64,000 nt of DNA from Calditrichia bacterium (GCA_963796965.1 CAWCNS010000009.1:585470-649469); one strand, 5' to 3'. Shown: positions 1 to 56,659, numbered from the stretch's first letter. Program-made: numbers and translations. The notes: generated from the letters alone by a model not told the origin.

Positions 1-318
1 GGTAATACAGGCATAGCTCTGGCCATGATTGGCGCTTCTTTGGGGTACCGTGTTACACTTTGCATTCCGGAAAATGCTGGTGATCTTCACAAACAAATGA
101 TGGTTTCTTATGGTGCAAAATTGATTTATACAGATCCTTTTAGTGGCACCGATGGCGCCATAGCAAAGGCCAGGGAAATAGTTGCCGAAAAACCTGATAA
201 ATTCTTTTATGTGGATCAATACAATAATCCCAAAAACTGGCAGGCTCATTATGAGGGCACTGGACCGGAAATAACTTATCAGACCCGGGCGCGATTACTC
301 ATTTTGTTGCCGGACTAG
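1..318 (+). CDS. cysM: cysteine synthase (PLP-dependent, CysM/CysK family), 5'-partial N-terminal part; reading frame breaks near 283-290 and continues in frame 3
   Basis: Translation GNTGIALAMIGASLGYRVTLCIPENA...KFFYVDQYNNPKNWQAHYEGTGPEI is typical of O-acetylserine/O-phosphoserine sulfhydrylase. After ...EITYQT the frame-1 product becomes nonsense, while frame 3 reads GAITHFVAGLGSSGTFVGTGRWLKK (the conserved CysM core). CCC/GGG homopolymers lie at the junction. Confidence 0.75.
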   Translation, partial: GNTGIALAMIGASLGYRVTLCIPENAGDLHKQMMVSYGAKLIYTDPFSGTDGAIAKAREIVAEKPDKFFYVDQYNNPKNWQAHYEGTGPEITYQTRARLLILLPD

Positions 319-701
319 GATCCAGTGGTACTTTTGTCGGTACAGGACGCTGGTTAAAAAAATATGACCCTGATATAAAATTAATATCAGTACAGCCCGA
401 TTCACCACTCCATGGTATGGAAGGAATGAAACATATGGAAACAGCTCTTATACCCGGAATTTATGATTCTGACCTTGCCGATAGAAATGTTGAAATTTCT
501 ACCGAGGAAGCTCAAACAATGGTTCATCGTTTAGCTAGGGAAGAAGGTCTTTTGGTGGGTAATTCTGCAGGAGGTGTTATGGCAGTTGCACTCAAAATTG
601 CAGAGGGTCTTCCCTCTGGTCAAATTATCATTATCTTTGCTGATGGTGCTTTTAAATACATGAACCAACCATTCTGGAAGGATTCATATCATGAAAATTA
701 A
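282..701 (+). CDS. cysM: cysteine synthase, C-terminal part (frame 3 continuation of the same gene)
   Basis: ITHFVAGLGSSGTFVGTGRWLKKYDPDIKLISVQPDSPLHGMEGMKH...LLVGNSAGGVMAVALKIAEGLPSG matches the C-terminal half of CysM/CysK. Stop codon at 699-701. Confidence 0.7.
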   Translation, partial: DPGAITHFVAGLGSSGTFVGTGRWLKKYDPDIKLISVQPDSPLHGMEGMKHMETALIPGIYDSDLADRNVEISTEEAQTMVHRLAREEGLLVGNSAGGVMAVALKIAEGLPSGQIIIIFADGAFKYMNQPFWKDSYHEN

Positions 702-1134
702 AATTAATCGCGTTGACCTGAAAGGTATTAAAAATCATGGTGTAAAAGATTATCCTTATGAGTGCTGTGGATTTTTGTTTGGTAAATCCTCTGAGGAGAC
801 TAAGACTATCTTGAAAATTCAGCCAGTTCAGAATTCTCGTGCTAGTGAAAACAAACATAACCGCTACCTGATTACACCCCAGGAATTTTTGAAGGCAGAA
901 CGTCTTGCCAGAATAGAAGGACTTGATATTATTGGATTTTATCATTCACACCCGGATGCAGAGGCAAGACCATCCCAATATGACCTGGATTATAGTTGGC
1001 CGGTATATTCTTATCTCATTGTATCTGTAAAAAAAGGGAAAGCTAAAGAAGCAACATCATGGCAGATAAAAGAAGATCGATCGGAATTTTTACAGGAGGA
1101 GCTAGCTATTAATACAGCTCCGGTTGAGATCTGA
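691..1134 (+). CDS. mec: JAMM/MPN+ (Mov34) zinc metalloprotease, Mec+/QbsD/CysO-hydrolase-like
   Basis: 147 aa with the JAMM motif (E...HSHP...S..D: GFYHSHPDAEARPSQYDLD). Start overlaps the cysM stop. Sits between cysM and the sulfur-carrier/E1 gene, as in the actinobacterial mec-cysO-cysM cluster. Confidence 0.8.
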   Translation: MKIKINRVDLKGIKNHGVKDYPYECCGFLFGKSSEETKTILKIQPVQNSRASENKHNRYLITPQEFLKAERLARIEGLDIIGFYHSHPDAEARPSQYDLDYSWPVYSYLIVSVKKGKAKEATSWQIKEDRSEFLQEELAINTAPVEI

Positions 1135-1220
1135 AGATCACTACAAAATAGTTGGAATTTAGACTTGGTAGTAGCAAAAAGAATGAATCATTAGTGGATA
1201 AAAACATGGAGCCATAAATC

Positions 1221-2663
1221 ATGAAGACCCAAATAATCATACCCAGCGCCTTGCGCCAGTATACAGATAATAATGATGCTATTGAATCTGCCGGTAAGAC
1301 TGTCGCAGAGGTATTAGAAGATTTAACAACACAATATCCGCTGCTTAAAAAACATCTTTTTAGTGAAGATGGCAGATTGCGGAATTTTGTTAATATTTAT
1401 ATTAATGAAGATGATATTCGCAGCCAGCAACAGAAACAAACTTCAATAAAGGAAGGCGATATCGTCTCAATTATTCCATCTGTAGCCGGAGGAAATTTTG
1501 ATATAGCTGATACAAAGGAAGTTGATTTATCTTCCGAGGAAATCAGTCGCTACAGTCGCCATATTTTAATGCCAGAGGTAGGCATTGAGGGTCAGAAAAA
1601 ATTAAAGAATTCATCGGCATTAATCGTAGGTCTGGGCGGTCTTGGTTCACCTTTGTCTTTATATCTGGCTGCCGCAGGAATGGGCAGATTGGGATTGGTT
1701 GATTCCGATGTCGTTGATCAAACCAACCTGCAGCGTCAGATCATCTATTCTGAAGATCAGGTTGGACAGTCAAAGATACAGAGTGCAAAAGATCGTCTTA
1801 GTGGCATTAATCCACATATCAGGATTGATACCTATGAAACCTTTTTTACTTCTGATAATGCAATGGAATTGGCTTCCCCCTACGATATGATTATTGATGG
1901 CACGGATAATTTTGCTACCCGCTATCTTGCCAATGATGTCAGTGTTCTTTTGGGAATTCCAAATGTACATGGCAGTATTTTTCGCTTTGATGGTCAGGTT
2001 TCTGTTTTTGATGCAAAAAATGGGCCCTGTTATCGGTGTCTTTATCCAGAGCCGCCACCTCCAGGTATGGTTCCAAGTTGTGCTGAGGGAGGCGTTTTGG
2101 GAATTTTACCTGGTATAATAGGCATGATCCAGGCAACCGAAGCGATAAAGCTGGCCCTGGGCCAGGGTGATAGCCTGGTCGGGAGATTATTAACCTTCGA
2201 TGCCATGCGCATGAAATTTCGGGAGTTGAAACTTAACAAGGATCCAAATTGCCCGATTTGTGGTGACAACCCCTCTATCACTGAGCTCATCGATTATGAT
2301 GCATTTTGCGGTTTAGGTCCTGATTCCCATGATATTCTGGAGGAGGAGTGGAATATTCACCCTAACCAACTAAAAAATGCTCTGGATAAAGGAGAAAAGA
2401 TTCGCATTGTGGATGTGCGTCAACCACAAGAATATGCTATCGCGAGATTACCGCAATCAGATCTGATTCCCTTATCAAACCTGGAGGTAAGTCTTCATAC
2501 ATTAAATCGTGATGAGGAAATTGTGGTGCTCTGCCGTTCTGGTATTCGCAGCGCTCAGGCAGTTAAATATTTACGAGAGGCGGGATTTAAAAATGTAAAA
2601 AATCTTGAAGGTGGCATTCTGGCCTGGGCCGATCAGATTGATTCAGAAATGATAAAATATTAG
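1221..2663 (+). CDS. moeZ: fusion protein: CysO/MoaD/ThiS-like ubiquitin-fold sulfur carrier (aa 1-91, ending ...SVAGG) + MoeZ/MoeB-type E1 adenylyltransferase + C-terminal rhodanese domain
   Basis: N-terminal ~90 aa beta-grasp ending in AGG. Then the ThiF/MoeB nucleotide-binding motif VGLGGLGSP, the zinc tetracysteine CYRC...C..C / CPIC, and a rhodanese domain with active-site CRSGIRS. Confidence 0.85.
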   Translation: MKTQIIIPSALRQYTDNNDAIESAGKTVAEVLEDLTTQYPLLKKHLFSEDGRLRNFVNIYINEDDIRSQQQKQTSIKEGDIVSIIPSVAGGNFDIADTKEVDLSSEEISRYSRHILMPEVGIEGQKKLKNSSALIVGLGGLGSPLSLYLAAAGMGRLGLVDSDVVDQTNLQRQIIYSEDQVGQSKIQSAKDRLSGINPHIRIDTYETFFTSDNAMELASPYDMIIDGTDNFATRYLANDVSVLLGIPNVHGSIFRFDGQVSVFDAKNGPCYRCLYPEPPPPGMVPSCAEGGVLGILPGIIGMIQATEAIKLALGQGDSLVGRLLTFDAMRMKFRELKLNKDPNCPICGDNPSITELIDYDAFCGLGPDSHDILEEEWNIHPNQLKNALDKGEKIRIVDVRQPQEYAIARLPQSDLIPLSNLEVSLHTLNRDEEIVVLCRSGIRSAQAVKYLREAGFKNVKNLEGGILAWADQIDSEMIKY

Positions 2664-2993: not shown

Positions 2994-4595
2994 CTATATT
3001 ATTTCATGCTGATGTAGAAGTGTAATATCATTATTAAACGCGTTATCTTTGTCTTTCAAACTTCTTTTATCAAATTGAAATTTAATTAGACTATCATAAG
3101 TATCTTCTATTTTGTCTATAACCATTTGAATACTTACCATAATTTCATCGTAGATTTTTTGTTTTACATCATTTAGTTCTGGTAAACTTGATAAAATTTC
3201 AACAATAGATTCACCCGTACAACGTACTGCCTCCATTAATTCTTCTTTTATAAAACCCTCAATATATCTTTCTTCGGCCAATTTTCTGGCATATTCGAGC
3301 AAATTGGTACGGTCACCTGTTTTTAAATCATTCTCAAGCATCTTGTACAAGTAGCCCACTCTAAAAATTAATTTGTCCAGATTAATTTTTTGATATGATG
3401 GAAAAATATTTCTGTTTTTATTTGCCAGAAGTTTTTCCAAAATACTCTGAATGATCTTTTGACGATAAGCAATCAATGATTCATAAATGATTAAATATTT
3501 TCTCTCACTTACCGCTTTATATGGTCGTATCTCATTTCTATATCGCCATTCAAAAGGATTACTCTTCATATTTGCTATCAAAAATAATAGGCGGCGTTTA
3601 ATATCATAGCGAGAAGTTGGTGTCCAGGAAAGGATTGCATATGAAGAAGCTGGATTAACCCTCATTTCCCTATCAATATATTTCACCATCCAAATCTTCT
3701 CGAATGTGGGGGTATTAATCAATCGCCCTAATATACATTTGATAAATATTCCAATACGCGTAATACTTTTGGGTATAAACATGGGTTCAACATTCTCGAA
3801 ATATTTATACTTCGTTGCGATTTCGAATAATTCTTTATGAGAGGTACATTTAGGTGAACTTGCAATTAAAATTTTAAAATCTGGTATCTTTTTTGAGTTT
3901 TTAAGGCATTGCAAAAAAAAGAAAACAAGATCATATATGTGTAAGTATGGAACTGCTGCTCGGCCTTTACCCGCTAGCAATCTACAATTCCAATGGGGAG
4001 ATAACCAAGTAGATAAAAATGAATATAGAGGAAGATACTCGCACCAATCGCTGAAGATAGCTGACTGGCGAACAACAACACAGGGAAAGGTTTTCGAATA
4101 TTTTTTTACTAACGCCTCCCCTGCACTTTTTGATCGAGCATAGGGAAAGGTTGCATCAGCAGGACTCTTTTCTGTTAAGATACTATCCGACTTTGTAAAT
4201 TCTGATACAGTAAGTGTGCTTGAAAATATAAATCGGGATAGTCCCAGATCTTTACAATATTTAAGGATGTTTTCGGTGCCAAGAATATTTGTTCTTTCAT
4301 ATTCACGATCTTCACTATTCTGAAAATTATAAAAGGCTGCTAAATGTAGGAAGTAATCAGCACCTCCCCTTTCAGCAATTTCCTCCAAAAGATGCTTAAC
4401 TTTAATTTCATCGGCAATATCTAATCTATTCCAAACAATATTTGGATGAATAGCTATACCGGCTTCTTTTTGAGATCTTCTCGCCAAGCCATAGATATAG
4501 TACTTATCTTTTATGGCGTCCAGGAAATACCTGCCCACAAATCCGGAGGCCCCACTAACTATGATTACTGGTAAATCAGATGGGCGCTTCACCAC
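2994..4595 (-). CDS. NAD-dependent epimerase/dehydratase (extended SDR) family protein with ~190-aa uncharacterised C-terminal helical extension
   Basis: N-terminal Rossmann motif VSGASGFVGRYFLDAI with a YxxxK-type SDR core over the first ~330 aa. The C-terminal 190 aa (YKAVSERKYLIIYESLIAYRQKII...) has no family I recognise. Confidence 0.75.
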   Translation of the reverse strand: MVKRPSDLPVIIVSGASGFVGRYFLDAIKDKYYIYGLARRSQKEAGIAIHPNIVWNRLDIADEIKVKHLLEEIAERGGADYFLHLAAFYNFQNSEDREYERTNILGTENILKYCKDLGLSRFIFSSTLTVSEFTKSDSILTEKSPADATFPYARSKSAGEALVKKYSKTFPCVVVRQSAIFSDWCEYLPLYSFLSTWLSPHWNCRLLAGKGRAAVPYLHIYDLVFFFLQCLKNSKKIPDFKILIASSPKCTSHKELFEIATKYKYFENVEPMFIPKSITRIGIFIKCILGRLINTPTFEKIWMVKYIDREMRVNPASSYAILSWTPTSRYDIKRRLLFLIANMKSNPFEWRYRNEIRPYKAVSERKYLIIYESLIAYRQKIIQSILEKLLANKNRNIFPSYQKINLDKLIFRVGYLYKMLENDLKTGDRTNLLEYARKLAEERYIEGFIKEELMEAVRCTGESIVEILSSLPELNDVKQKIYDEIMVSIQMVIDKIEDTYDSLIKFQFDKRSLKDKDNAFNNDITLLHQHEII

Positions 4596-4832
4596 TGATA
4601 CCCCTTAAAAACGAATAGGTATATGCACGTAAGTAATTATCCAATTCGAGTAGGTAATTTTATTCTTAGTCTTAACAGAAAAGGAGAAGTGAAAATTTCA
4701 AGTAGAGGCTGGATCAGAAAGAATTTCCATGAGCTGTTTTAGGATTCATATCAAATATAGTTATTTTTAATCTCAAAACAAGCGAATTTATTAAGATATT
4801 GTGTTATAGTATCTGCAATTGTTATACACAAA

Positions 4833-5129
4833 TTAGCTTCGTATCACTTCATAGAGCCCCGGGTAATTAGATGGATAGTCGGTAGCTGATTCCACAATAC
4901 TATTGAGTTCTTTATTGTTCAAAGCAGCCATAAAATGGTCTGGTGATTCCCATTCTGAGATAATTACCAGATGAAATCTGGCATCTGGATTGATCGCGCG
5001 ATGGAACTTCGCCGTTACCTATCCTGGTTGCTTTCTAAAATACGCAGCAAATTTATCCCACATAACAATTGCCTGTTCCTCATTTCCTTCCGATACTTCG
5101 AATGGATTGATTACAATTATATTAGCCAT
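4833..5129 (-). pseudogene. ABM (antibiotic-biosynthesis monooxygenase / Dabb-like) domain protein interrupted by an in-frame TAG codon (minus-strand 5021..5019)
   Basis: Minus-strand translation MANIIVINPFEVSEGNEEQAIVMWDKFAAYFRKQPG*VTAKFHRAINPDARFHLVIISEWESPDHFMAALNNKELNSIVESATDYPSNYPGLYEVIRS. The frame is continuous across the TAG, where homologues usually carry Tyr. Missed by the ORF track because it is split into two sub-threshold ORFs. Confidence 0.5.
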
Positions 5130-5340
5130 TTATCCCCTAGATTTACTAAAATTAATATACCCTCATTTATTTGAATTATTCTATATTCAACCTGCTTCTA
5201 TTCCGGGTTATTCCATTAGTTAAATATAGAAAAACGTATATTGACAGAATTCAAATGAATAAAAACATATTGAAATTAAAATTGCTGGATGTTATTTTAG
5301 AAATAGATTATCGCCTTTATCATCATTCCCAATATTTTAA

Positions 5341-8300
5341 TTGAATACTAATATTGCACCGCTATCTTATATTATAAGGACTAATCCAGGAAAGGATGTT
5401 GTTGTGCGAAATTTCTTAAAAATTGTTGCGACAATAGTTCTACTCAAATTCTGTATGTTAATAGTACCGACGAGTGGCTTTGCTCAAATGAAGCCTGTAA
5501 TCGGACTACATGAGAATGTGCCCAATGTTGTTTATCTGACAAACGTCCGGATTATAAAAGCCCCAGGCCTTGTAATTGAAAAGGGCATTCTTTTTATAAG
5601 AGATGGCCGAATTGAAGCTGTTGGATCAGGTATAAAAGCGCCAGCTGATGCCCATGTTATTGACCTGAAAGGAAAAACAATCTATCCCGGGTTTATAGAT
5701 TTATTTTCTTCCTTTGGTTTGGAAGAGAATGATAATTCCAAAGCAAAAAGTGTCGCGAGTGAAAGCTATCAAACCAGAGGCGCTGTCTACTGGAACCCGG
5801 AAGTTCATCCCCAGACGAATGCCGCCCATGAGTTAGAGTCAAACAAAGAACAGGCTGATCTCTTACGTGGGAATGGATTTACGACCGTTCTTACCTTACC
5901 GGCTAAGGGTATCTTCCGGGGAAGCGGTGCTCTTATTCAATTAACAGATGACACACCAAATAAAATGATCCAAGAATCCAATCTGGTTCAATCCTTATCA
6001 TTTAAAAAGGGAAAGATACCTAGGATAAGAAGCACTGCATCATACCCGCGCTCGACAATGGGCAGTATTTCACTCATTCGTCAGGTTTTTTTGGATGCCC
6101 AGTGGTACGAACAGGCCTGGACAAAATATCGTCGTTCACCTTCCGGACGAGCGACCCCACCAACCGATTTAACTCTCGAGGCTCTGGTTCCATTTTTAAA
6201 TAAGAAGAGGCCGGTAATCACCTCCATATCTAACGAATTGGAGATATTTAGAGCCGCCAAGATAGCCCGGGAGCTTGACCTGAAGATGTGGTTCATGGGA
6301 TGTGGCAGTGAATATCGCCGCATTGATGATCTCAAAGATCTGAAAACGAAAATAATTATCCCTCTCAACTTTCCGCCTCCACCTATCGTTTCATCAGAGG
6401 AGCGAGCCCTTTCGGTAAATCTTCGTGATTTAAAATATTGGGATGTAGCAGCAGAAAATCCTGCCCGCCTAGCCAAAGCAAAAATAGATTTTGTATTATC
6501 TTCAACGCAGCTCACGAAAGAATCTGCTTTCCTCAAAAATTTAAGATTAGCTGTACGCAGAGGTCTTCCGGAGAAAGAGGCACTAACAGCCTTAACCCTC
6601 AGACCGGCTAAATGGCTAAATATGGATGATCAACTTGGTAGTCTTGACAAAGGCAAAATTGCCAATTTTTTTATCACAGATGGTGACCTATTTGAGGATA
6701 ATACACATATATTGGAGACTTGGGTAAACGGAAAAAAGTATCCGGTTATAAATGTGCCCGTTACGGACCCAAGAGGTCTGTGGACAGTAACCATAGCAAC
6801 GCAGAGTGGTGAGGAAACAGCAACGCTTGATATTGATGGCTCAATCGAAAAGCAAAAAGCAACGATAACATTGTGTAACGTTGAGGTTAAGATTAAAGAT
6901 ATTAAATTGGAAAATGGCATTCTCAATCTTTCCTTTACCGCAGATTCATCCTGCCATTCCGGAGTTACCCGCCTGACCGGTATTTTGACGGATCGGCAAC
7001 TATCCGGCCTCGGCATATGGGCCAATGGTAGCAGTTTCCACTGGAAAGCAGATCTAATCAATTCCTTGAATGAAAAAACTGATAGTACCGTAGTTAATTC
7101 AAATCGGATGGCCGAATTTCCTGTGGTCTATCCTGACGGTGCATTTGGAATGTCTTCTGCTCCGAATCAACCGCCTTCCCTGCTTATAAAAGATGCCACC
7201 ATATGGACGAGCGGCCCTGAAGGTATCATTGAAAACGCGGATATGCTCATTAAAAAGGGTAAAATTTTCCGCATTGGTCGGGATCTTTCAATTCCCTCTG
7301 ACACAAAAATTATTGATGCTGCTGGTAAACACCTAACTCCGGGACTCATTGATGCTCACGCTCATATTGCTACAAGTGGCGGAGTCAATGAAGGTACCCA
7401 GGCAATTACTGCAGAAGTCAACATTAGAGACATCATCGATTGTGATGATATCAATATCTATCGCCAATTAGCCGGTGGTGTGACAACAGTCTGCACCCTA
7501 CATGGTTCGTCCAACCCCATCGGAGGAACCTATGCTGTGATTAAACTAAGATGGGGCGAGATGCCCGATAAAATGTTACTTAGCAAAGCAAAAGATGGGA
7601 TAAAGTTTGCCCTGGGAGAAAATGTTAAGCAATCAAACTGGTCCAATTCCGTTCCCCGTTATCCACAAACACGGATGGGTACCATTGAAATCATTGAGGA
7701 TGCCTTTCGGGCAGCAATGGATTATCGTCAAGAATGGAATATGTATAAAACAGAATATAAAAAAAATAAAAATTTAATCTCCCCACGTAAGAACCTGCGG
7801 TATGAGAAAATTCTCGATATTCTTGATGGCAAGACTATTATCCACTGCCATAGTTACCGGCAGGATGAATCGTTGGCTTTAATGAGGTTGGCTGAAGAAA
7901 TGAATTTTAAAATTGCTGTATTTATCCATATTCTGGAGGGCTATAAAATTGCCACTGAATTAAAAGCCCATGGTGCCATGGCGACAACCTTCAGCGATTG
8001 GTGGACTTATAAAATGGAAGCCTATGACGCCATTCCATATAATGGTGCGATCATGCATGAACAGGGGATTATCGTTAGTTATGATTCGGACAGCGCAGAA
8101 CTAGCCCGGCGCCTGAATACCGAGGCAGCCAAGGCTGTCAAATATGGAAATGTGCCGCCTAACGAAGCTCTGAAATTTGTTACTTTAAATGCAGCCAAGC
8201 AATTGTTTTTAGAAGATCAGATCGGTAGCCTGGAGCCGGGTAAAGATGCTGATTTTGTTATATGGAGTGATTCTCCCCTCTCTACATATGCCAGGTGTGA

Positions 8301-8439
8301 ACAGACCTGGATTGATGGTCGCAAATACTTCGACCTGAAAGACGATGAACAGAGAAGGGAAAAAGTTGCCAGGGAGCGGAATGTTCTAATTCAGAAAATT
8401 TTGAAGATAGAGGAGACGAAAGAGTCCACGAATGAGTAA
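5341..8439 (+). CDS. amidohydrolase family protein (tandem metal-dependent hydrolase domains), secreted
   Basis: Signal-peptide-like N-terminus (probable real start at GTG ~5404: RNFLKIVATIVLLKFCMLIVPTSGFAQ). Amidohydrolase motifs GLIDAHAHIATSGG and IHCHSY..DE. 1032 aa with two amidohydrolase-like halves. Confidence 0.8.
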   Translation: MNTNIAPLSYIIRTNPGKDVVVRNFLKIVATIVLLKFCMLIVPTSGFAQMKPVIGLHENVPNVVYLTNVRIIKAPGLVIEKGILFIRDGRIEAVGSGIKAPADAHVIDLKGKTIYPGFIDLFSSFGLEENDNSKAKSVASESYQTRGAVYWNPEVHPQTNAAHELESNKEQADLLRGNGFTTVLTLPAKGIFRGSGALIQLTDDTPNKMIQESNLVQSLSFKKGKIPRIRSTASYPRSTMGSISLIRQVFLDAQWYEQAWTKYRRSPSGRATPPTDLTLEALVPFLNKKRPVITSISNELEIFRAAKIARELDLKMWFMGCGSEYRRIDDLKDLKTKIIIPLNFPPPPIVSSEERALSVNLRDLKYWDVAAENPARLAKAKIDFVLSSTQLTKESAFLKNLRLAVRRGLPEKEALTALTLRPAKWLNMDDQLGSLDKGKIANFFITDGDLFEDNTHILETWVNGKKYPVINVPVTDPRGLWTVTIATQSGEETATLDIDGSIEKQKATITLCNVEVKIKDIKLENGILNLSFTADSSCHSGVTRLTGILTDRQLSGLGIWANGSSFHWKADLINSLNEKTDSTVVNSNRMAEFPVVYPDGAFGMSSAPNQPPSLLIKDATIWTSGPEGIIENADMLIKKGKIFRIGRDLSIPSDTKIIDAAGKHLTPGLIDAHAHIATSGGVNEGTQAITAEVNIRDIIDCDDINIYRQLAGGVTTVCTLHGSSNPIGGTYAVIKLRWGEMPDKMLLSKAKDGIKFALGENVKQSNWSNSVPRYPQTRMGTIEIIEDAFRAAMDYRQEWNMYKTEYKKNKNLISPRKNLRYEKILDILDGKTIIHCHSYRQDESLALMRLAEEMNFKIAVFIHILEGYKIATELKAHGAMATTFSDWWTYKMEAYDAIPYNGAIMHEQGIIVSYDSDSAELARRLNTEAAKAVKYGNVPPNEALKFVTLNAAKQLFLEDQIGSLEPGKDADFVIWSDSPLSTYARCEQTWIDGRKYFDLKDDEQRREKVARERNVLIQKILKIEETKESTNE

Positions 8440-8524
8440 ATCACCCGTTGTCTCAGCGAGAAATACCGATGGGACATATCACGAATTATAATGATTACCG
8501 TAAGCAGAAAGCAGGAAAGAAAAT

Positions 8525-9844: not shown

Positions 9845-9851
9845 GGCTGAT

Positions 9852-11102: not shown

Positions 11103-11123
11103 TCATCCTGAAATGGAAATCGG

Positions 11124-36769: not shown

Positions 36770-36837
36770 GCAGTTTTGTTATTGCACCTCACTGTAAAAC
36801 GAACATAGTTCATATAACAATAAACTTTAACCGGGGT

Positions 36838-38289: not shown

Positions 38290-38327
38290 TAAAAAATATA
38301 ACAAATAGTTTTGGTTTTTATCCAGTA

Positions 38328-38350: not shown

Positions 38351-38404
38351 CAATTCAATCAACATCAATTTATATACTATTTATTATTCGAATGGAGATT
38401 ATCT

Positions 38405-39007: not shown

Positions 39008-39035
39008 GAACGGTTTTATACGAGAGAGGTGACAT

Positions 39036-40690: not shown

Positions 40691-40698
40691 AAGGTGAT

Positions 40699-44977: not shown

Positions 44978-45074
44978 AATTTATGACTTATTGTCGCTAT
45001 CATATAATGAAATTGCTGTTTCAATAAAAGATATATATCTAAAGAAAAATCTTATCAATCCCAAGGGAGTGTTT

Positions 45075-47411: not shown

Positions 47412-50400
47412 GAGGAAACTATGCCTATATAGCAGATTTCGATGTACTTCGCATCTTTAACGTTTCCGACCCTTCCAATCCTATAGAAACAGGTGCGCTA
47501 GAAGTAAGTTGTAAACAAGTCGTTATCAGCGGTGACTATGCCTGTGTATCCCATGATTATAATTTTGATTTTCAAATTATCGACGTCTCTGATCCGGAAA
47601 ATCCACAAGTGGTCGGACAGTTTGACGAGGGATATGGGGCCCGAGGAATATCCATTGCTGGCTCTAATGTATATCTTACCCATGGACCGGAAGGTGTCTA
47701 TGTTCTTCGGGAAACTATTCCGCCATTTTCTGCCCTTAATTTAACTGCCGGAGGGAGTTCACCCAGCCCCTGGCAAAACAATCCCACTTTTTTGCTCAAT
47801 TGGCAAAATCCGGGTGATATGAGTGGTATCAATCAAGCGAAATATAAAATTGGTACTCAACCACCTTCCAGCAACAATGATTTTGCTGCATACTTGCCTG
47901 GTACTTCACCCCAGTCAATTACAGTTTCTCAGGAAGCCAATCAATCTCTCTATCTTTGGCTGGTCGATAATGCAGACAATGAAAATTATCAAAATATAAA
48001 TACTGTTGGTATTCGGTATGATGCATCTATTTCCCCCCCCACAAATTTTTTTGAGAGTCATGGCGTTGTATCCGATACCTGGCAGAACAGTACCCGTAAT
48101 CCGACATTTTCATGGACAGCCCCAACAGATTTATCCGGCATTGATAAATATTATCTATATTTCGGATCCAATCCGGGCGGTAGTGTACCAACCGACTCTA
48201 CCAGCAATATATCTTTCAGTTTTTCAGGCTCGGAAGGAACCTCCTATTTTCGGATTCAAATGAAAGATAATGCAGGGAATATCAGCGCCTGGACTACGGC
48301 GTTTATCTTTAAATATGATAATACGGTTCCTGTTAATCCTTTACAAGCAACAGAAGTTGGCGGAGCAAGTTCTGATGTCTGGCAAGCGGATGTTGCCGAT
48401 CCCAATTTTACATGGAGTGGCACTTCAGACATTCTCTCCGGAATCGCAAAATACTGGATCTATATGGGGCCAGATTTGGATGGAGAACCGTTTATTGAAA
48501 GTACAACCCCTACATTCAATCCGGGTCCGTTTACAAATGGTACATATTATTTGCGTGTGATGGTGGAGGACGCGGCTGGTAATCTCTCACCCCCTAAAAC
48601 TCTATTTATCTTTAAACATGATGCCATACCCCCAGAGAATCCAACAGATTTTAGTGATATTGTCGGCTCTGAAAATAATATTTGGCAAAATACGGTCAAT
48701 GATCCGAATTTCTCTTGGAATCCCGGGAATGATCCACTCTCAGGAATTCAAGCTTATCAATACTATTGGGGGAAAGATCCCAATGGGATATCTGATAATA
48801 TGGTGATGTCTCCCAGTTATAATCCCGCACCGGCCGATACGGGTAGTTGGTATCTTCGGATTAGTACAATCGACAGAGTATCCAATGCTTCGGCCTGGAT
48901 CACTGCTTATATCTTCAAATATGATAATATCGCCCCCCATGTTATTGCTGCCTCTAATGATACCAGTGGATATCTTAGCTTTACTGTCAGCTGGGTAAAT
49001 GGAACTGACCAGGGTGGATCAGGAATAGAGTACTATCATATACGCCTCAAAGAAAATGAAGGAGAATGGGTAGACTGGCAAGTTAATACATCCAATATAA
49101 GTGCCCTTTATACCGGAGAGCACGGTCAAACCTATCATTTTGAAGCGACAGCCATTGATAAAGCCGGTAATGTTGAAAGTTTTTCAAACCTGACTGAAAC
49201 ATCAACCTATATAGATACGCTGACAACAGATATGATTGCTCCGGGTAAACCCATTAATCTGCTCTCAAAAGGTAGCGATCCCAGTCTTTGGCAGAATTTT
49301 CCCCAATTTGAATTGAATTGGACGAATCCGTTTGATGAAAATGGTATTGCCCACGGCTATTATAAACTGGATAGTCCTTCTAGCTCAACCAATGACTATG
49401 ATGGTTCTGTTGGTGGCACTCCACCTCAAACAGTTGTTATTAATAAAGAGGGCGGTCAAAATGTATATCTATGGTTGGAAGATGGACGAGGGAATGTAGA
49501 TTATCATAACTACGATTTTATTGAATGTCGCTATGACTCAACGCTACCACGCGGCGCTCAGGCCAGTTCAGCCGATACAAGTGTCACCGCCTCCTTTCTG
49601 GTTAGTTGGTCAGGAGCCACTGATGAGGGCGGGTCGGGGATCTCTGGTCGTTATGATATAAAAGTGCGTGATAATCAGAGTGCCTGGTCCTATTGGCTGC
49701 AAGACAGTCTTTGTACGAATGCCTATTATCTGGGTGAACAAGGTCATACCTATTATTTCGAAGCAGCTGCACGGGATGATGCCAAAAATATTGAAGTTTT
49801 TACCCGTCAACCCGAATGTTCTACCTATATCGGAACCCGCTTGGCCATTTCCCTTTCATCCCTGTCAGGAGAACAATCCGACGATGTCTCATTCAATTAC
49901 ACCATTTATAATTTTGAAAACAATCTTACCAGCTTAGCATGTGAATACTATTCCCTTTCTGATAATGCCTGGCAATCAGCGACCATGACAGGGAATGTTA
50001 CAGATATTCAGCCTCAGGATTATAGCGGTACCCTGGTTTGGGATTCATATACAGATCTGCCCGGTCTTGATTGTGAGAACATGCGTTTTAAAGTAACACC
50101 ATTGGATTCAAAAGGGAATGGACTTGCCGACTCCACCTACTTTTTTCATCTGGATAATAACCGTATCCCCTCTGTGCACTTAGATCCCCTCATAGGCGAG
50201 AGAAAAAATGATATTACTGTTTCCTATTACTTAAAGGACATGGAAAATGATACGATATCGCTCGTATGTGAATATTACAACCCGCTCAGCCAGTACTGGT
50301 TTCAAGCCACTACTACAGGGAATCTATCTGATATATTAAACTATGATGGTACTATCACATGGAAATCATACACAGACCTACCTGGTACAGCAGATTCAAT

Positions 50401-52201
50401 CAAATTCCGGATCCAGCCATCTGATACTGATCCGGGTACAGCCGACACAATTATAATAAATCTGGATAATGTGGGCGCGCCCGATGTCTTATCGATCAGC
50501 CAGTTGGATCAGGAACAGAGCGGGAATATTGATATTAAATATGTCCTCGCCGATGACCAGGGCGATAGGGTCAATCTGATTTGCCAATATTCAGATAATT
50601 CTGGTAGTCAATGGAATCTGGCCTCTGTCTCAGGTACCACAGCAAATATTTCACAGTCTGACTACACAGGTTCGATCATATGGCAATCAAATAACGATCT
50701 GCCCGGTGTGGATAAAACAACGGTTCGATTTAAAATTACCCCAAACGATGGTCATGCCGGAACAGCATTAGCCACCAATGATTTTCATCTGGACAATAAT
50801 CTTCCCCCTTCTATACAGATTGGTCCAATAAATTCACCGCTGTCTGCTAACATTGACCTGCCCATTTCGATCCAGGATTTGGAACAAGACACAATATATA
50901 TAATGGGTAAGTATTCAAAAAAAAACGGGATCTGGAAAAAAATGAAGTTTACAGAGTTACCCCTGCAAAATAAAAATAATTATACGGATACGCTCTACTG
51001 GCAAAGCCTGCATGATTTGGGATACGGAAAACATGAAACGATCCAGATCAATCTATACCCTGCTGATAATGATACGGGAATTAGTGTTCAATCAAATTCA
51101 TTTAATGTATATAATAAAGCCGGCGACTATACAGGCGATTTTAATATTAACTCAGATGACCTTCCAGCTTTTGCTTTGGCCTGGAGACAGCAGGATCTCA
51201 GCAAAGAAATCGGACCTTCGGATCCCGCTACTACTCCAATCCCGTATCTGATACCCCAACCCGATGGAAAGATAGACTTTGAAGATCTGATGGTATTAGT
51301 GCAACAATGGAATTTTTCCTATAAATATCCCAATTATTTCAAAGTTAGTAATAACCAAAGATCCAAAAAGGCCCAGGCTAAAATAAATTTACAAATGGAT
51401 CAAAAAACCACCCTCTTGTTAAATGAACCTATTTTTATTCCAGAAAGAAATGAATCTGTTAGTCTTAAAAGTTCTCATTTAGTCCACCTCATACAATCAG
51501 ATTATGATCAATGGGCTAATAAACTCGGCAATGAGCTTAGTATTAAACTTGATTCATCAGTCTCTATACTTGGCCTGCAAATTGAAATTCAGTATGATGC
51601 CGGCTCCTTTTCTTTTACTGGCCTGGAAAATAAATTTCTCAAGGAGCAAAACGGCCTTACCTTTGAAATTAATGACACAAAAGAGGGGTTTTATTGTCTA
51701 AATACCTTTGTATTAGATGAAAAAAAACCCAACCATTTATCCGGAGAACTTTTACGATTCAAAATTGAAGCCTCAAAGGAGGCTACCTCTTCTATATCCT
51801 ACCAATGGAAGATATACGCGAGTGATGGACGCATTCTTTCAGAGGGTGTAGACATGTTTGATATAGATGTGCATCCAACAAAACCAACCCATTATGCCTT
51901 ATATCAAAACTATCCCAATCCCTTTAATCCGGCAACAACAATACGCTATCAATTACCTGTTGATGGAAAGGTGCGCTTGGATATTTTCAATATTCTTGGA
52001 GAACGCGTCACAGAGATCGTCAATCAAAATCAACCCGCCGGTTATTATAATCAAATCTGGGATATTTCGGAGAATTCTCGAACGGTAGCCAGTGGAATTT
52101 ATTTTGTGAGACTTCTCATTTCAGGTAAGGATGGTTCGCGATATGCAAATCACAAAAAGTCTGATTTTGTTAAAATAGTAGAGATCATAATGGAATGTTA
52201 A
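47402..52201 (+). CDS. giant LVIVD-repeat surface protein B, fragment 2/2: remaining blades, Fn3/Ig-like repeats, dockerin-like pair, cohesin-like domain, T9SS CTD
   Basis: Frame 2 is open from ~47402 (...VRGNYAYIADFDVLRIFNVSDPSNPIE...). ORF-track M at 47609. Dockerin-like GDYTGDFNINSDDLPAFALAW...QPDGKIDFEDLMVLVQQWN. Cohesin-like ILGLQIEIQYDAGSFSFTG. CTD YQNYPNPFNPATTIRYQLPVDGKVRLDIFNILGERV...GIYFVRLLI. Confidence 0.8.
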   Translation, partial: CTVRGNYAYIADFDVLRIFNVSDPSNPIETGALEVSCKQVVISGDYACVSHDYNFDFQIIDVSDPENPQVVGQFDEGYGARGISIAGSNVYLTHGPEGVYVLRETIPPFSALNLTAGGSSPSPWQNNPTFLLNWQNPGDMSGINQAKYKIGTQPPSSNNDFAAYLPGTSPQSITVSQEANQSLYLWLVDNADNENYQNINTVGIRYDASISPPTNFFESHGVVSDTWQNSTRNPTFSWTAPTDLSGIDKYYLYFGSNPGGSVPTDSTSNISFSFSGSEGTSYFRIQMKDNAGNISAWTTAFIFKYDNTVPVNPLQATEVGGASSDVWQADVADPNFTWSGTSDILSGIAKYWIYMGPDLDGEPFIESTTPTFNPGPFTNGTYYLRVMVEDAAGNLSPPKTLFIFKHDAIPPENPTDFSDIVGSENNIWQNTVNDPNFSWNPGNDPLSGIQAYQYYWGKDPNGISDNMVMSPSYNPAPADTGSWYLRISTIDRVSNASAWITAYIFKYDNIAPHVIAASNDTSGYLSFTVSWVNGTDQGGSGIEYYHIRLKENEGEWVDWQVNTSNISALYTGEHGQTYHFEATAIDKAGNVESFSNLTETSTYIDTLTTDMIAPGKPINLLSKGSDPSLWQNFPQFELNWTNPFDENGIAHGYYKLDSPSSSTNDYDGSVGGTPPQTVVINKEGGQNVYLWLEDGRGNVDYHNYDFIECRYDSTLPRGAQASSADTSVTASFLVSWSGATDEGGSGISGRYDIKVRDNQSAWSYWLQDSLCTNAYYLGEQGHTYYFEAAARDDAKNIEVFTRQPECSTYIGTRLAISLSSLSGEQSDDVSFNYTIYNFENNLTSLACEYYSLSDNAWQSATMTGNVTDIQPQDYSGTLVWDSYTDLPGLDCENMRFKVTPLDSKGNGLADSTYFFHLDNNRIPSVHLDPLIGERKNDITVSYYLKDMENDTISLVCEYYNPLSQYWFQATTTGNLSDILNYDGTITWKSYTDLPGTADSIKFRIQPSDTDPGTADTIIINLDNVGAPDVLSISQLDQEQSGNIDIKYVLADDQGDRVNLICQYSDNSGSQWNLASVSGTTANISQSDYTGSIIWQSNNDLPGVDKTTVRFKITPNDGHAGTALATNDFHLDNNLPPSIQIGPINSPLSANIDLPISIQDLEQDTIYIMGKYSKKNGIWKKMKFTELPLQNKNNYTDTLYWQSLHDLGYGKHETIQINLYPADNDTGISVQSNSFNVYNKAGDYTGDFNINSDDLPAFALAWRQQDLSKEIGPSDPATTPIPYLIPQPDGKIDFEDLMVLVQQWNFSYKYPNYFKVSNNQRSKKAQAKINLQMDQKTTLLLNEPIFIPERNESVSLKSSHLVHLIQSDYDQWANKLGNELSIKLDSSVSILGLQIEIQYDAGSFSFTGLENKFLKEQNGLTFEINDTKEGFYCLNTFVLDEKKPNHLSGELLRFKIEASKEATSSISYQWKIYASDGRILSEGVDMFDIDVHPTKPTHYALYQNYPNPFNPATTIRYQLPVDGKVRLDIFNILGERVTEIVNQNQPAGYYNQIWDISENSRTVASGIYFVRLLISGKDGSRYANHKKSDFVKIVEIIMEC

Positions 52202-52460
52202 AAACTCCGAGGCCTTTGTGAAAAGAAAGATGTAGGCCACCTTTAAGATGGTCTACATCTATTCCATATTCCACCTAAAACAGATTAATCAATTTTTAAT
52301 TAGACTCTCCTTCAAGTTTGATTTTATTATCTTTCTTTTTAGATTACCATTATATATTCCATATGCTAATTTTTATTATATTATTTATAAACCCATACGT
52401 CGCCTTATTGAATCATTCGATGCATGGATTGGTTCCCCAGAATTTTTATGGAGCGAAAAC

Positions 52461-53339
52461 ATGATTAGCCAAAAATTCATACAAAAATTGATATATCTAA
52501 TTTTGAATGGAATCATCGCCCCGCTACTTTTTTTATTTTTGAATGGCTGCGAAATTAAAGAAGAAAATGCACAAAGATTACCAAACATCATTTTTATCCT
52601 GGTTGATGATATGCGTTGGGATCAACTGGGCTCAACAGGCCATCCTTTTGCTAAAACGCCCAACATTGATCGAATCGGCAAAGAAGGTGTCACCTTCAAC
52701 AATGCCTTTGTCTGCACACCGCTCTGTTCTCCCAGCCGGGCCAGTTTTCTCACAGGACAATTCCCTCATAAACACCGAATAATTAACAATGATCGCAACG
52801 GCTTATCCTTTATCAGTCATAAGTTAGTTACTTTTCCACAATTATTACGTCGGGTTGGATATAAAACCGCCTTTATTGGCAAGTGGCATATGGGTGATGA
52901 TGATTCCCGTCGTCCCGGGTTTGATCATTGGATTAGTTTTCGTGCTCAGGGAATTTTTATTGATCCGGTTGTAAATACCAATGGTCAACGGAGTCAATAT
53001 ACGGGTTATATGACCGATTTATTAAACCAGTGGTCTGTTGATTTTCTCAATCAAAAACATGATAAACCTTTTCTTTTGTATCTTTCTCACAAAGCCGTTC
53101 ATGCCCCGTTTATACCTGCAGACCGACACAAAAACCAATATACCGATCACTCCTATCTGCCACCAACAAAGAGCATCGATGATCTTAAGGGTAAACCTGC
53201 AATAAACCGTAAACTGCCCCCGGTTGATGTTCTCCAAATTCCAGGGGCTACACCGGAACCCGCTGAACCCCGATATGGACGTGGATCAGCTGAAGAACGA
53301 TATCTATTTGGATCATCATCGCTGTCTCAGTTCTGTTGA
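52461..53339 (+). CDS. sulfatase (arylsulfatase/N-sulfoglucosamine sulfohydrolase family), fragment 1/3; frameshift at G4 ~53244-53247
   Basis: ATG at 52461. Lipoprotein signal ...LFLFLNGC. Sulfatase signature CTPLCSPSRASFLTGQFPHKH (C-x-P-x-R formylglycine motif) and NIIFILVDDMRWDQLG. Confidence 0.8.
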   Translation: MISQKFIQKLIYLILNGIIAPLLFLFLNGCEIKEENAQRLPNIIFILVDDMRWDQLGSTGHPFAKTPNIDRIGKEGVTFNNAFVCTPLCSPSRASFLTGQFPHKHRIINNDRNGLSFISHKLVTFPQLLRRVGYKTAFIGKWHMGDDDSRRPGFDHWISFRAQGIFIDPVVNTNGQRSQYTGYMTDLLNQWSVDFLNQKHDKPFLLYLSHKAVHAPFIPADRHKNQYTDHSYLPPTKSIDDLKGKPAINRKLPPVDVLQIPGATPEPAEPRYGRGSAEERYLFGSSSLSQFC

Positions 53340-53784
53340 TGATGGTATCGGAATGTTATTTGATGTACTGGAACAGAATGGTAAATTGGATAATACCTTG
53401 ATAATATTTGCCAGTGATAATGGTTTTCTATTCGGAGAACATGGGTTGTTCATGAATAAACGAGTGCCATATGAAGAGTCACTTCGGATTCCTCTGCTTA
53501 TGCGTTATCCAAAATTGATAAGGCCGGGAAGTAAAAGTGAACAAATGGTCTTAAATATTGATATTGCACCGACTTTATATGAGCTGGCTGGTGTTAATGC
53601 TCCGATTCCTATTCATGGGAAATCACTTGTTCCGGTCTGGCAGGATCCATCTCTCAAACTCAGATCTGAATTTTTAGCGGAATACTATATTGAAAAAATC
53701 ACACCTCTCTACGCCACCTGGCAGGCTGTCAGGTCAGCTCAAATGGAAATATATCCGCTATCCAGAACTACCAGATATGGATGA
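53224..53784 (+). CDS. sulfatase, fragment 2/3; second frameshift ~53735-53745
   Basis: LHRNPLNPDMDVDQLKNDIYLDHHRCLSSVDDGIGMLFDVLEQNGKLDNTLIIFASDNGF...IPLLMRYPKLIRPG is the conserved sulfatase middle region. Confidence 0.75.
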   Translation: MMFSKFQGLHRNPLNPDMDVDQLKNDIYLDHHRCLSSVDDGIGMLFDVLEQNGKLDNTLIIFASDNGFLFGEHGLFMNKRVPYEESLRIPLLMRYPKLIRPGSKSEQMVLNIDIAPTLYELAGVNAPIPIHGKSLVPVWQDPSLKLRSEFLAEYYIEKITPLYATWQAVRSAQMEIYPLSRTTRYG

Positions 53785-53977: not shown

Positions 53978-54058
53978 ATTAATACAGATTTTCTATTATA
54001 AAGTAATCGAACCAACAATAAACCAGCTAATGTCATCCAATTCCGGGAGATAAATTCA

Positions 54059-55330
54059 ATGAGATCCAAAAAAATAAATCAAACAAATGAATCAAGAACC
54101 ACACGCCGACATTTTATTAAAATTGGTAGTACGGCGGTGGCTGGAATTGCATTGGCAGGTAACAGGTTATTTCCAGCAGACACCTCCCCCAAAAAGATTC
54201 GCATCGGGATTGTAGGGGGAAGATTCGGAGCCAGTTTTCAATGGCACGAGCATCCCGACTGCATTGTAGAAGCGGTGAGTGATTTGCGGCCTGAGCGCCG
54301 AAAGCATCTAATGGAAACCTATAATTGCAGTAAATCTTATCCAAGTCTGGAGGAATTGGTTAAGGATAAAAATATTGATGCTGTAGGTGTCTTCACTGAG
54401 GGACCAAATCATGCCAAACATGTGATCGAATGTATAAAACATGGCAAACATGTGATTTCCGCGGTTCCTGCTTGCGCAGGTGGTGGCGTGGAAGAAGCTG
54501 AAGAAATGTTTGATGTTGTAATAAAAAGCGGTCTAACTTATATGATGGCCGAAACCAGTTATTACCAACAATTTACAATTTCTGCCCGTAAGTTTTATCA
54601 ACAAAAAAAGTATGGGAATCTATATTACTGTGAATCGGAATATCAGCATTCTGGACTTGAGGTGCTCTTTTTTGAAGACGGTAAACGCACATGGCGACAT
54701 GGCTTTCCTCCCATGCTCTACCCTACACATTGTACTGCTCATTTGATTAGTGTCAGTGGTGAACGTTTAACCGAAGTTGTTTGTCATGGATGGGGTGACG
54801 ACAATGAAATATTAAAGGATAATGTTTATAATAATCCCTTCTGGAATGAGTCGGCGATGTTTAAAACTAATCGAGGCAATGCCTTTCGGGTAAATATCTG
54901 GTGGAAGGGCGCTCACCGCGGTGGTGAACGGGCGGAGTGGATTGGCGATAAAATGAGTTTTTATGCCTATCATCCAAATGGTCTTGGACCGGTGATTGTC
55001 CGACCAGATAATGACCGGATGGAAAAGGATGATGCCGGATTTGAACGCTTTCTTCCCGCATTAGAAAATTATAAACAACCGGAATGGTGGAAAACGGATC
55101 TATTGCCCGAACCATTAAGACATAACTCCGGTCACCACGGATCCCATACTTTTCTGACGAACGAGTTTATTGATGCCCTTGTTCATGACAGACGGCCAAC
55201 TATTGATATAAATGAAGTTATGGCTTATACAGTTCCGGGAATCATTGCTCATGAATCAGTCTTTGCAGGGCGGGGTATATATGCAGATCCCTCAATTAAG
55301 CTAATTACAAAAAATTTATCTCACGCAGAG
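54059..55330 (+). CDS. TAT-exported Gfo/Idh/MocA-family NAD-dependent oxidoreductase (GH109-like); 3' end uncertain because no in-frame stop separates it from the next gene
   Basis: Twin-arginine signal TRRHFIKIGSTAVAGIALA. Rossmann motif KIRIGIVGGRFGASF. Conserved Gfo/Idh/MocA core through ...GIIAHESVFAGRG. After ~55300 the in-frame translation becomes AT-rich junk (ISNFLIIKMYWISLGFD) that runs into the next signal peptide. Confidence 0.65.
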
Positions 55331-55405
55331 CCGCAGCGATTTATAAGAATAAGGATTTCAAATTTTCTAATAATTAAAATGTACTGGATATCTTTAGGAT
55401 TCGAT

Positions 55406-56659
55406 ATGAGAACAATTTTAGTCCTCACTCCATGTATCATTCAATATAGAATTAATTATATTAAAAAAATCATTTCTATACATTCGCCCGCCATTTGGCC
55501 AACCATCAATTCTTTTGTTATAGCAGCCTTCTTTCTATTGCCAATGGTGGCATGTAATCAGCAAAATTCCGTTGAAGATAACTTTAATAACGAACTTTAT
55601 CATCTAAAGAACCTGCAAAGCCGGGCGGCATCAGCGGAAAATCCAACAGCTGAACCTGGTAAGGGTGGTATGACGGCCAATGGATTAAAGGGATCACCGG
55701 CCATTAAAGATTTTAAACACGGCACTACCGAAATTCTGCTGGATCAAATAGGACCGGGAAAGATTCGACATATTTGGTGTACATCAAAGCCACGCAAACC
55801 AGAACATTTGAGAAACCTGATCCTTAGAATGTACTGGGAAGGTAGCAAAATCCCAAGTGTTGAGGTACCACTTAGCGATTTTTTTGGTGTTGCCCATGGT
55901 GCACCTGTGCCGATGTATTCAGCAATGGTTGCAACTCAGGAAGGTAGAGGATTTAACTGCTATTTTCCTATGCCCTTTTCAGATGCAGCTTTAATCACCA
56001 TCTCAAATGATTCGGATACAGATCTAGATTATTTTTTCTATCAGATTGATTTTACACTCGGTGATCCTGTAAGTAAGGAGGATGGACGATTTCATGCCTC
56101 ATTTCGACGCGAAAATCCAACTATTTTAGGCCAGGATTTTACTCTTCTTGATACGGAAGGTGCCCGTGGTATTTACCTTGGTGCCGTGATTGGTGTCCGG
56201 TCCCTGTCCGAAGGTTGGTGGGGTGAAGGTGAGGTAAAAATATTTATTGATGATGATAAAAAATATCCAACGATCTGTGGTACAGGTCTTGAGGATTATA
56301 TTGGTTCGGCATGGGGATTAGATGTTCATAATACACCTTATCAGGGCGCCCCTTTAGTGCATGGCAATTTCTTTTCTATATACCGTTTTCACGTACCCGA
56401 TCCAATCTATTTTCAAAATCGTATAAAGATTACCGTTCAACAAATGGGTAGTACCCATAAAAAAAATGTCCTACCCATATACGGTGATAAATTGATATTT
56501 AGCTCTAAGAATCATCCACGACGGGATCCGGAAGATGGTTATTACCTGCGTTCCGATGACGTCTGTGCTGTTGCCTATTGGTACCAATGGCCATTGATAC
56601 AAAAAAGAAAACCTCTTCCAGATAAGGAAAGGCGAAGAGCTAATTTGATAGGAGATTAG
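55406..56659 (+). CDS. DUF2961 protein (glycoside hydrolase family 172-like), lipoprotein
   Basis: ATG at 55406. Lipobox LLPMVAC. Conserved DUF2961 segments (ILLDQIGPGKIRHIW, YWEGS, GLEDYIGSAWG). Confidence 0.65.
   Translation: MRTILVLTPCIIQYRINYIKKIISIHSPAIWPTINSFVIAAFFLLPMVACNQQNSVEDNFNNELYHLKNLQSRAASAENPTAEPGKGGMTANGLKGSPAIKDFKHGTTEILLDQIGPGKIRHIWCTSKPRKPEHLRNLILRMYWEGSKIPSVEVPLSDFFGVAHGAPVPMYSAMVATQEGRGFNCYFPMPFSDAALITISNDSDTDLDYFFYQIDFTLGDPVSKEDGRFHASFRRENPTILGQDFTLLDTEGARGIYLGAVIGVRSLSEGWWGEGEVKIFIDDDKKYPTICGTGLEDYIGSAWGLDVHNTPYQGAPLVHGNFFSIYRFHVPDPIYFQNRIKITVQQMGSTHKKNVLPIYGDKLIFSSKNHPRRDPEDGYYLRSDDVCAVAYWYQWPLIQKRKPLPDKERRRANLIGD

Follow-up and report, generated by a model that had tools for sequence, protein, structure and literature searches.

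Single-base frameshifts at AGCT motifs in a 64-kb window of a Calditrichia metagenomic contig, very probably residual errors of a long-read consensus

The window and its sixteen frameshift sites

The window analysed here, the whole 64-kb stretch of DNA from a Calditrichia bacterium (GCA_963796965.1, CAWCNS010000009.1:585470-649469), is part of a contig of a metagenome-assembled genome (MAG) and contains a series of genes interrupted by single-base frameshifts, which form the subject of this report. With a G+C content of 39% and genes mainly on the + strand, it encodes amidohydrolases, an ABC/HlyD export system, a rhamnosidase, PurU, a kinase-cyclase, a sulfatase, a Gfo/Idh/MocA protein and a GH172 protein, together with two tandem giant LVIVD-repeat proteins carrying C-terminal domains of the type IX secretion system (T9SS). 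The organism is an uncultured bacterium making T9SS-secreted LVIVD-repeat proteins, and in a homologue search with one gene, DUF5916, the nearest named homologues belonged to candidate division KSB1, at 53-55% identity. Exact look-ups found the window proteins, truncated fragments included, on record at NCBI and ENA from a contig of 772,253 bp; a literature search with the run, assembly and contig accessions found no mention of them.

Sixteen single-base frameshifts, all on the + strand and within ~56 kb, disrupt 12 otherwise intact genes among the ~45 in the window. Fourteen of these disruptions had been listed in an earlier note on this DNA, and all of them proved real on the evidence of Pfam continuity, frame switches in tblastn with orthologues, and signal peptides lying in another frame. 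Two sites are added here, at ~35688 and at ~52160, the latter first noticed by its atypical C-terminus and only afterwards seen to fit the AGCT pattern described below. In the following list gA and gB denote the giant proteins A and B, STK the Ser/Thr kinase, hyp the hypothetical gene at 35860-36769, and g324 the gene at 34882, with numbered suffixes marking successive sites within one gene (gA1-3, sulf1-2 for the sulfatase); L008 is contig_17118 of ENA ERZ25039514, a second assembly of nearly the same DNA.

284-289 (+): cysM, one base missing in CCCGGG
14429-14433 (+): CsgG-like/OMP lipoprotein (OMP), extra T in AGCT, AG[T]CT, base 14431
24968-24972 (+): GDSL hydrolase, extra C in AGCT, AGC[C]T, base 24970/24971
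27261-27265 (+): CBM9/DUF5916 protein, extra C in AGCT, AGC[C]T
30178-30182 (+): DAGK/YegS-type kinase, extra T, GAA[T]GAG, plus a substitution at 30182; no homopolymer
33373-33374 (+): Ser/Thr kinase-cyclase (STK), C of CTAG missing, true sequence ATACTAGAC; A5 run unchanged
35687-35688 (+): g324, G of AGCT missing, true sequence TTCAGCTCA; 288 aa as written, 324 aa repaired
36113-36130 (+): hyp, extra base within a few bp of AGCT (36119-36122)
39388-39395 (+): gA1, one base missing, compatible with G4 called as G3
40646-40650 (+): gA2, A of AGCT missing, true sequence TCTGAGCTGGGA; neighbouring substitution relative to L008
42762-42763 (+): gA3, extra A, GACA[A]GAG
47405-47406 (+): gB mid-gene, G of AGCT missing, GTA[G]CTG
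52158-52162 (+): gB end, extra T in AGCT, AG[T]CT, 9 codons before the true end
53292-53301 (+): sulf1, extra C at 53298, GAAGAA[C]GAT
53736-53746 (+): sulf2, extra base within AGCTCAAATGG, beside AGCT or in an A3 run
55258-55262 (+): Gfo/Idh/MocA, extra T in AGCT, AG[T]CT, 11 codons before the stop

One single-base edit per site converts all 12 genes, across all 16 sites, into single open reading frames (ORFs) without internal stop, bearing out the earlier expectation that such edits would restore family-typical full lengths. Restored and orthologue lengths in amino acids are 240/240 for GDSL, 296/296 for DAGK, 642/642 for STK, 324/324 for g324, 753/753 for DUF5916, 1980/1983 for gA, 2375/2377 for gB, 483/479 for the sulfatase, 414/416 for Gfo and 302/305 for hyp. 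Both signs of indel occur: the first 13 sites comprise eight that require removal of a base and five that require an addition, and among three later ones 35688 needs one base more, 52160 and 55260 one base less. Against these 16 +/-1 indels stand 0 nonsense codons, and in the genes hit repeatedly (gA three times, the sulfatase twice) each fragment is still open, with no further decay. Intact orthologues of all twelve genes are present in five related contigs, and the gA and gB paralogues align contiguously across each other's junctions.

Between 1 and 36 kb, the frame changes are apparent from domain profiles, signal peptides and orthologue alignments. The PALP profile (Pfam) covers cysM at 64-154 in one frame and at 156-294 in another, the true sequence containing either a G4 run (..TYQTRGA..) or CC[A]GGG (..TYQTQGA..), with orthologues reading TYQT[Q/R]G.ITHF. 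In the OMP gene frame 2 encodes the signal peptide and frame 0 the mature protein, in the GDSL gene the signal peptide likewise lies in the other frame, and neither conserved core has a start codon upstream. Full-length DUF5916 homologues of 753 aa match the fused protein, whose restored length equals that of P0150. Pfam profiles are similarly divided in DAGK (YegS_C 4-112 and 114-157) and STK (Pkinase 2-139 and 138-253). The g324 orthologue in related contig L005 aligns in one frame over residues 1-269 and in another over 270-324, with P0546 and P0547 as intact cluster members, and two window frames are needed to align the 305-aa hyp orthologues of L001 and L005.

Between 39 and 56 kb, the gA orthologue P0001 (1983 aa, 83% identical) shows three frame switches in tblastn. 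At gA1 it changes frame at 39365-39395, where contig L006 has GGGG and the paralogue alignment is contiguous; at gA2 its reading ..NPSKIGFYGSG places the junction between TCT and CTGGGA, where L008 has CTGAGCTCGG; at gA3 it reads CEYSLSAENVWD, the extra A being absent in L008 and paralogue gB running contiguously across 42750/42752. The intact 2377-aa gB orthologue P0004 changes frame at 47402-47405 and reads ..AYSVAISGNYAY; inserting the G gives AYGVAVRGNYAY and with it the orthologue's Ala. At its C-terminus gB ends in ..NHKKSDFVKIVEIIMEC as written and in ..NHKKLILLK with the T removed, the orthologues ending in ..NHKKLIVLK and ..HKKVIVLK. The sulfatase carries the Sulfatase profile (Pfam) at 1-189 and 202-301 in two frames, and its orthologue switches frame twice in tblastn. 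The 479-aa orthologue in L009 sets the sulf1 junction between ..GRGSAEE and DIYLDHHRCLSSVDD, and at sulf2 the orthologue frame changes at 53741/53742, with SGSH_C profile 1-86 and 103-152 in two frames.

The Gfo/Idh/MocA gene does lack its stop and run into the next gene, as previously reported: its shifted frame is open by chance, giving an 866-aa ORF fused with GH172/DUF2961, while the true end lies in another frame. Cluster members at >=90% identity are 412-422 aa long and end in ..AHESAL.G..MKIPQL., an end that the window carries in the other frame from ~55260; the 416-aa orthologues end in HESALQGG..IPQL, again found in another frame of the window. With the T removed the protein ends in HESALQGGVYMQIPQLS at 414 aa, HESAL being present in three of the four orthologues read and TSAL in the fourth. 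In L009, GH172 is a separate 389-aa gene. In the window, GH172/DUF2961 shows a good lipoprotein signal peptide (55505-55546, +), NSFVIAAFFLLPMVAC, with no ATG, GTG or TTG before it and with ATC at the place expected for ATG (..ACC ATC AAT TCT..); the start is either non-canonical or hidden by a substitution error.

The giant genes and their surroundings also vary among relatives. Both the window (39036-52201) and the 83%-identical L006 carry gA (~1980 aa) and gB (~2375 aa) in tandem after a cohesin-like gene, the two proteins being 30-47% identical. The more distant L005 (6072-13205) has the B-type giant gene only, which suggests a lineage-specific duplication. Between gB and the sulfatase, close relatives carry a gene for a 386-aa AAA_14/DUF4143 ATPase (L009 7064-8224, L010 975-2135), and the corresponding interval of the window (52201-52460) spans only ~260 bp.

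Homopolymer runs and the AGCT motif

The frameshifts had been described earlier as lying mostly at homopolymers, in line with run-length miscounts by pyrosequencing, Ion Torrent or nanopore, and this description does not hold. A run of >=3 bases is indeed found near most sites, but such runs lie within 10 bp of 84% of window positions (runs of >=4 within 10 bp of 45%), making proximity uninformative and no greater than chance. A change of run length is possible only at cysM and gA1, which are compatible with G4 read as G3, and at sulf2, which could be A2 read as A3; at most 3-4 of the 16 indels fall in a run of >=3, and a run-length change is excluded or disfavoured at the remaining 12-13 sites. 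The runs named earlier are unchanged in near-identical DNA at GDSL, STK, DAGK and g324, with the indel elsewhere (5-6 bp away from the T5 run of GDSL and the A5 run of STK). Neither the 2-bp interval that must hold the shift in DAGK nor the corresponding 16-bp interval in mid-gB contains a run of >=3, and homopolymer fixes at OMP, DUF5916, Gfo and gB end yield residues foreign to the orthologues. A 772-kb metagenomic contig is, moreover, unlike 454 or Ion Torrent output. As the main cause, miscounted homopolymers are largely refuted, and we regard this explanation as quite unlikely.

The genes had been named correctly, and at six or more sites the positions required correction by 6-50 bp. The GDSL indel is at 24970 and not at the T5 run of 24976, that of DUF5916 at 27263 and not at T5 27255, and that of STK at 33373/4 and not in the A5 run; hyp lies at 36113-36130 rather than 36150, gA2 at 40646/7 rather than in the T4 run at 40654, and sulf1 at 53298 rather than in the G4 run at 53245. 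Several candidate repairs were rejected. Shortening the T4 run of OMP produces IVCLPL, unlike the IAVLPL of its orthologues, and shortening the T5 run of DUF5916 produces SFQPAYD, against SFSAAYD in P0151. Guessed corrections for DAGK (DEIE) and STK (KIID) found no exact match, the intact proteins having EEVE and KILD; these differing junction residues indicate that the indels lie elsewhere than first placed.

The feature common to the sites is the tetranucleotide AGCT. Half of the indels (8/16) lie inside it, in the forms AG[T]CT, AGC[C]T, A[-]CT and [-]GCT, whereas only ~1.2% of positions are in or directly beside the motif (binomial p ≈ 4e-12). The eight are GDSL, g324, gA2, DUF5916, OMP, gB mid-gene, gB end and Gfo, assigned from near-identical DNA for GDSL and g324 and from noisy DNA together with orthologue length for gA2. 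Restricting the count to DNA-verified sites leaves three of six inside AGCT (p ≈ 3e-5). At four sites the AGCT fix, not the homopolymer fix, gives the orthologue-matching residue: OMP (IAVLPL), DUF5916 (SFSAAYD), Gfo (HESAL) and gB end (HKKL). Without the extra T, OMP reads ..TKTSIAVLPLSSNGIS, in agreement with P0390 (84% identical, ..MSMAVLPLSSNGIS) and with P0391/P0393, and corrected DUF5916 reads ..AGSFSAAYDSDLWEL, identical to its orthologue P0151, P0150 having AFSAEYD. With 117 AGCT copies in the window, ~8 of roughly 125 sites (~6%) are affected. A scan for further hidden errors, using 5-mers made of AGCT plus one inserted base, recovered the known sites 27263 and 52160, the two that satisfied its selection rules, and nothing else convincing.

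Among the other eight sites, hyp and sulf2 have an intact AGCT no more than a few bases away and STK lies in CTAG; DAGK, sulf1 and gA3 fall in GA-rich contexts without runs, and cysM and gA1 are the two G4-compatible cases already mentioned. GAAGA, an MboII-type motif, may tentatively be put forward as a second error motif at DAGK and sulf1, with two events at a common motif and a p of ~0.03 by our own estimate.

Motif composition over the whole window gives observed/expected ratios of 0.16 for CTAG, 0.52 for AGCT, 0.56 for GTAC and 1.5 for GATC. Similar ratios are found in L005, L006 and L009, related contigs from other assemblies, and are thus properties of the genome rather than artefacts.

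Near-identical assemblies and the origin of the indels

At four sites (GDSL, DAGK, STK and g324) the frameshift is absent from near-identical assemblies. Logan contig L003, from run ERR11523668, is 99.92% identical to window positions 23186-26786, with 2 substitutions and 1 gap over 3.6 kb, the sole gap being the GDSL frameshift base; the GDSL gene is intact there (P0125, 240 aa). Logan contig L007 matches 29037-31100 at 99.86% identity with 2 substitutions and 1 gap, which is the DAGK frameshift base, and encodes the intact 296-aa P0124. Over 5.7 kb the two contigs, both of run ERR11523668, differ from the window by 4 substitutions and 2 gaps in all, and a third, L004 (969 bp), is identical. 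Contig L008 reproduces window 32746-37126 with zero substitutions and only two gaps; the gaps are the STK frameshift, where L008 encodes the intact 642-aa P0136 with GHVKILDFG, and the g324 site at 35688, where it encodes the intact 324-aa P0546. Orthologues in related genomes are single-frame, and the split gene model recurs only at hyp, which L008 carries in two pieces (111 + 117 aa) identical to the window.

Beyond this clean 4.4 kb, L008 becomes abruptly noisy (4383-12116, equal to window 37126-44774), with 480 substitutions and 179 gap columns in 12 kb and ORFs shattered to pieces of 70-250 aa, so that quality changes abruptly inside one public primary-assembly contig. The noisy part still restores the frame at gA2 and gA3. 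The four substitutions separating the window from the Logan contigs lie at 24913, 25363, 30182 and 30327: one changes CTAG to ATAG in the window, another abuts GTAC on its 5' side, and a third is part of the DAGK indel event. Motif linkage may accordingly extend to substitution errors, in which case silent or missense errors would sit in intact-looking genes.

The frameshifts are very probably +/-1 errors left in the consensus of a long-read assembly, concentrated at the AGCT motif, rather than gene decay. The earlier attribution to assembly errors instead of pseudogenes is thereby upheld, given the intact near-identical copies at four sites, the restriction to +/-1 indels and the intact orthologues. 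Among the platforms then proposed, pyrosequencing and Ion Torrent fit neither the AGCT bias nor the 772-kb contig, and unpolished nanopore data fit. A 772-kb metagenomic contig points to long reads, and its combination with motif-bound indels of both signs fits systematic nanopore error at a modified motif; a companion assembly, whose contigs bear Flye-style names and which has noisy stretches rich in indels, is circumstantial evidence in the same direction. Most likely, the data would be native-DNA Oxford Nanopore Technologies (ONT) reads assembled without (full) correction by accurate reads, and the organism would methylate AGCT and probably also CTAG. With the pore signal altered by the modified bases, basecalling or polishing software untrained on the modification would then insert or drop a base at ~6% of the motif occurrences.

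Comparable behaviour has been described. In Klebsiella, the Dcm methylation motif accounted for ~70% of ONT consensus errors under default basecalling models; polishing eliminated just a portion of them, and the authors propose the same for other taxa and modifications (Wick et al. 2019, PMC6591954). As in those Dcm errors, a single short motif, here probably methylated, is involved, and the errors persist in the consensus, affect a fraction of the motif copies and dominate what remains; the motif differs, being CCWGG there and AGCT, possibly with CTAG, here, the errors visible here are ORF-breaking indels, and for the window contig both methylation and platform are deduced. Systematic ONT errors that cause frameshifts, partly ascribed to species-specific DNA modification, were likewise the object of Homopolish (PMC8011154). 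Those errors resemble the present ones as coding frameshifts in long-read assemblies that can be repaired through homologues, and differ in being mainly homopolymer indels.

Several points weigh against this explanation. That the reads came from a nanopore and that AGCT and CTAG are methylated are suppositions drawn from assembled sequence, and the Logan run ERR11523668 may be of either short or long reads. At least three sites lack a clear motif (DAGK, sulf1, gA3). At four of the eight AGCT sites the exact base was deduced from orthologue residues and not from near-identical DNA, and a fifth, gA2, relies for its near-identical DNA on the noisy stretch of L008. Within the first 14 kb there are 39 AGCT sites and 0 AGCT-linked frameshifts, against ~2.5 expected, the cysM lesion at ~286 being the only frameshift there. 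In the clean part of contig_17118 the AGCT-adjacent hyp error of the window recurs, and neither the error at 35688 (AGCT) nor that at 33374 (CTAG) does; the shared frameshift could be a recurrent systematic error or genuine.

A consensus artefact of strain mixture, in which a polisher merged coexisting strains and turned misaligned polymorphisms into indels, is very unlikely. A substitution does lie 3-4 bp from the indel at DAGK and gA2, and P0547 (Logan) attests a ~95% identical strain in public data. The concentration at AGCT would nevertheless be unexplained, most sites have no adjoining polymorphism, and the clean 4.4 kb of L008 has zero substitutions relative to the window.

Genuine pseudogenisation, under which the strain would truly carry the indels and be losing a quarter of the genes of the region, is very unlikely. 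Pseudogene-rich reductive genomes such as those of Mycobacterium leprae and host-restricted Salmonella resemble the window in the density with which ORFs are disrupted (here about one gene in four), but real gene decay mixes nonsense mutations, deletions and frameshifts common to the population, whereas here only motif-bound +/-1 indels occur, absent from near-identical assemblies. No such mixture of lesions was found in the window, and at four sites the lesions are not fixed in the population, the intact copies differing by only 0-2 other substitutions per contig. The ratio of indels to substitutions against the Logan contigs, 2:4, far exceeds that of real strain divergence, the ratio of frameshifts to nonsense codons is 16:0, and the genes hit several times are otherwise undecayed. 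To our knowledge, no mutational process targets AGCT in bacteria. What decay would account for is the presence of the hyp frameshift in two assemblies of one population, and a 5'-truncated GH30 fragment (23142-23801) as at least one real remnant, unless it is a misjoin.

That fragment, a 219-aa ORF on the + strand, corresponds to the C-terminal portion of a GH30 glycosidase (Glyco_hydro_30C and the last part of the barrel) and nothing more. Beginning 32 bp past the stop of a complete Fe-ADH-like gene, it lacks the N-terminal ~260 aa and has no other member in its 90% cluster; it is either a real 5'-truncated remnant or an assembly misjoin, and not a frameshift.

There is also a slim chance that some of the AGCT-linked indels are real, arising for example by motif-targeted damage or repair slippage at modified or restriction-targeted AGCT and present as true +/-1 heterogeneity in the population; the hyp frameshift is reproduced in two assemblies. 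If so, the long-read consensus would capture +/-1 variants that other assemblies miss. Programmed ribosomal frameshifting or transcriptional slippage restoring the proteins in vivo has no specific support and is already refuted, its probability close to nil, by 16 sites in unrelated genes, in +1 and -1 directions and with no common slippery motif, by single-frame orthologues and by near-identical intact copies.

Consequences for gene models and further features of the window

As deposited, the contig splits or mis-ends 12 of the ~45 window genes, among them the giant T9SS-secreted LVIVD proteins (~1980 and ~2375 aa), the sulfatase and the kinase-cyclase, and creates a false 866-aa Gfo-GH172 fusion. 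The fragmentation of gene models anticipated earlier, notably of the giant proteins and the sulfatase, is thus present in the deposited record, and the fragments have already entered public protein collections. Pseudogene counts, pangenomes and domain-fusion inferences drawn from this MAG would be wrong, and its deposited gene models are untrustworthy until the contig is polished. Homopolymer-aware polishing alone would be insufficient, methylation-aware re-basecalling or short-read or homologue-guided polishing being needed. Since the frameshifts are taken as an artefact, their value is practical, and their biological content is limited to a hint on the organism's methylome, the error pattern implying that AGCT is probably, and CTAG perhaps, methylated.

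Further features lie outside the disrupted genes or beside them. For the PEGA-domain protein (gene 36838-38289), single-sequence and 3-sequence-alignment scans found no relative among GTDB representative genomes. An HlyD-type adaptor gene (12719-13852, -) and two MacB/FtsX-type permease genes (9852-12371, -) lie 348 bp apart, and the window annotation shows no ABC ATPase gene in this cluster. At 1-2663 (+), cysM is followed by a JAB/Mov34 peptidase gene (691-1134, overlapping the end of cysM) and then by a gene for a 480-aa protein. By eye, the first ~90 residues of that protein end in ..SVAGG like a ThiS/MoaD/CysO carrier, and we take them to be such a carrier fused to a MoeB/ThiF-type adenylyltransferase with a rhodanese domain; the arrangement is reminiscent of cysteine synthesis by the CysO-CysM-Mec thiocarboxylate route, carrier and activating enzyme here presumably forming one polypeptide.

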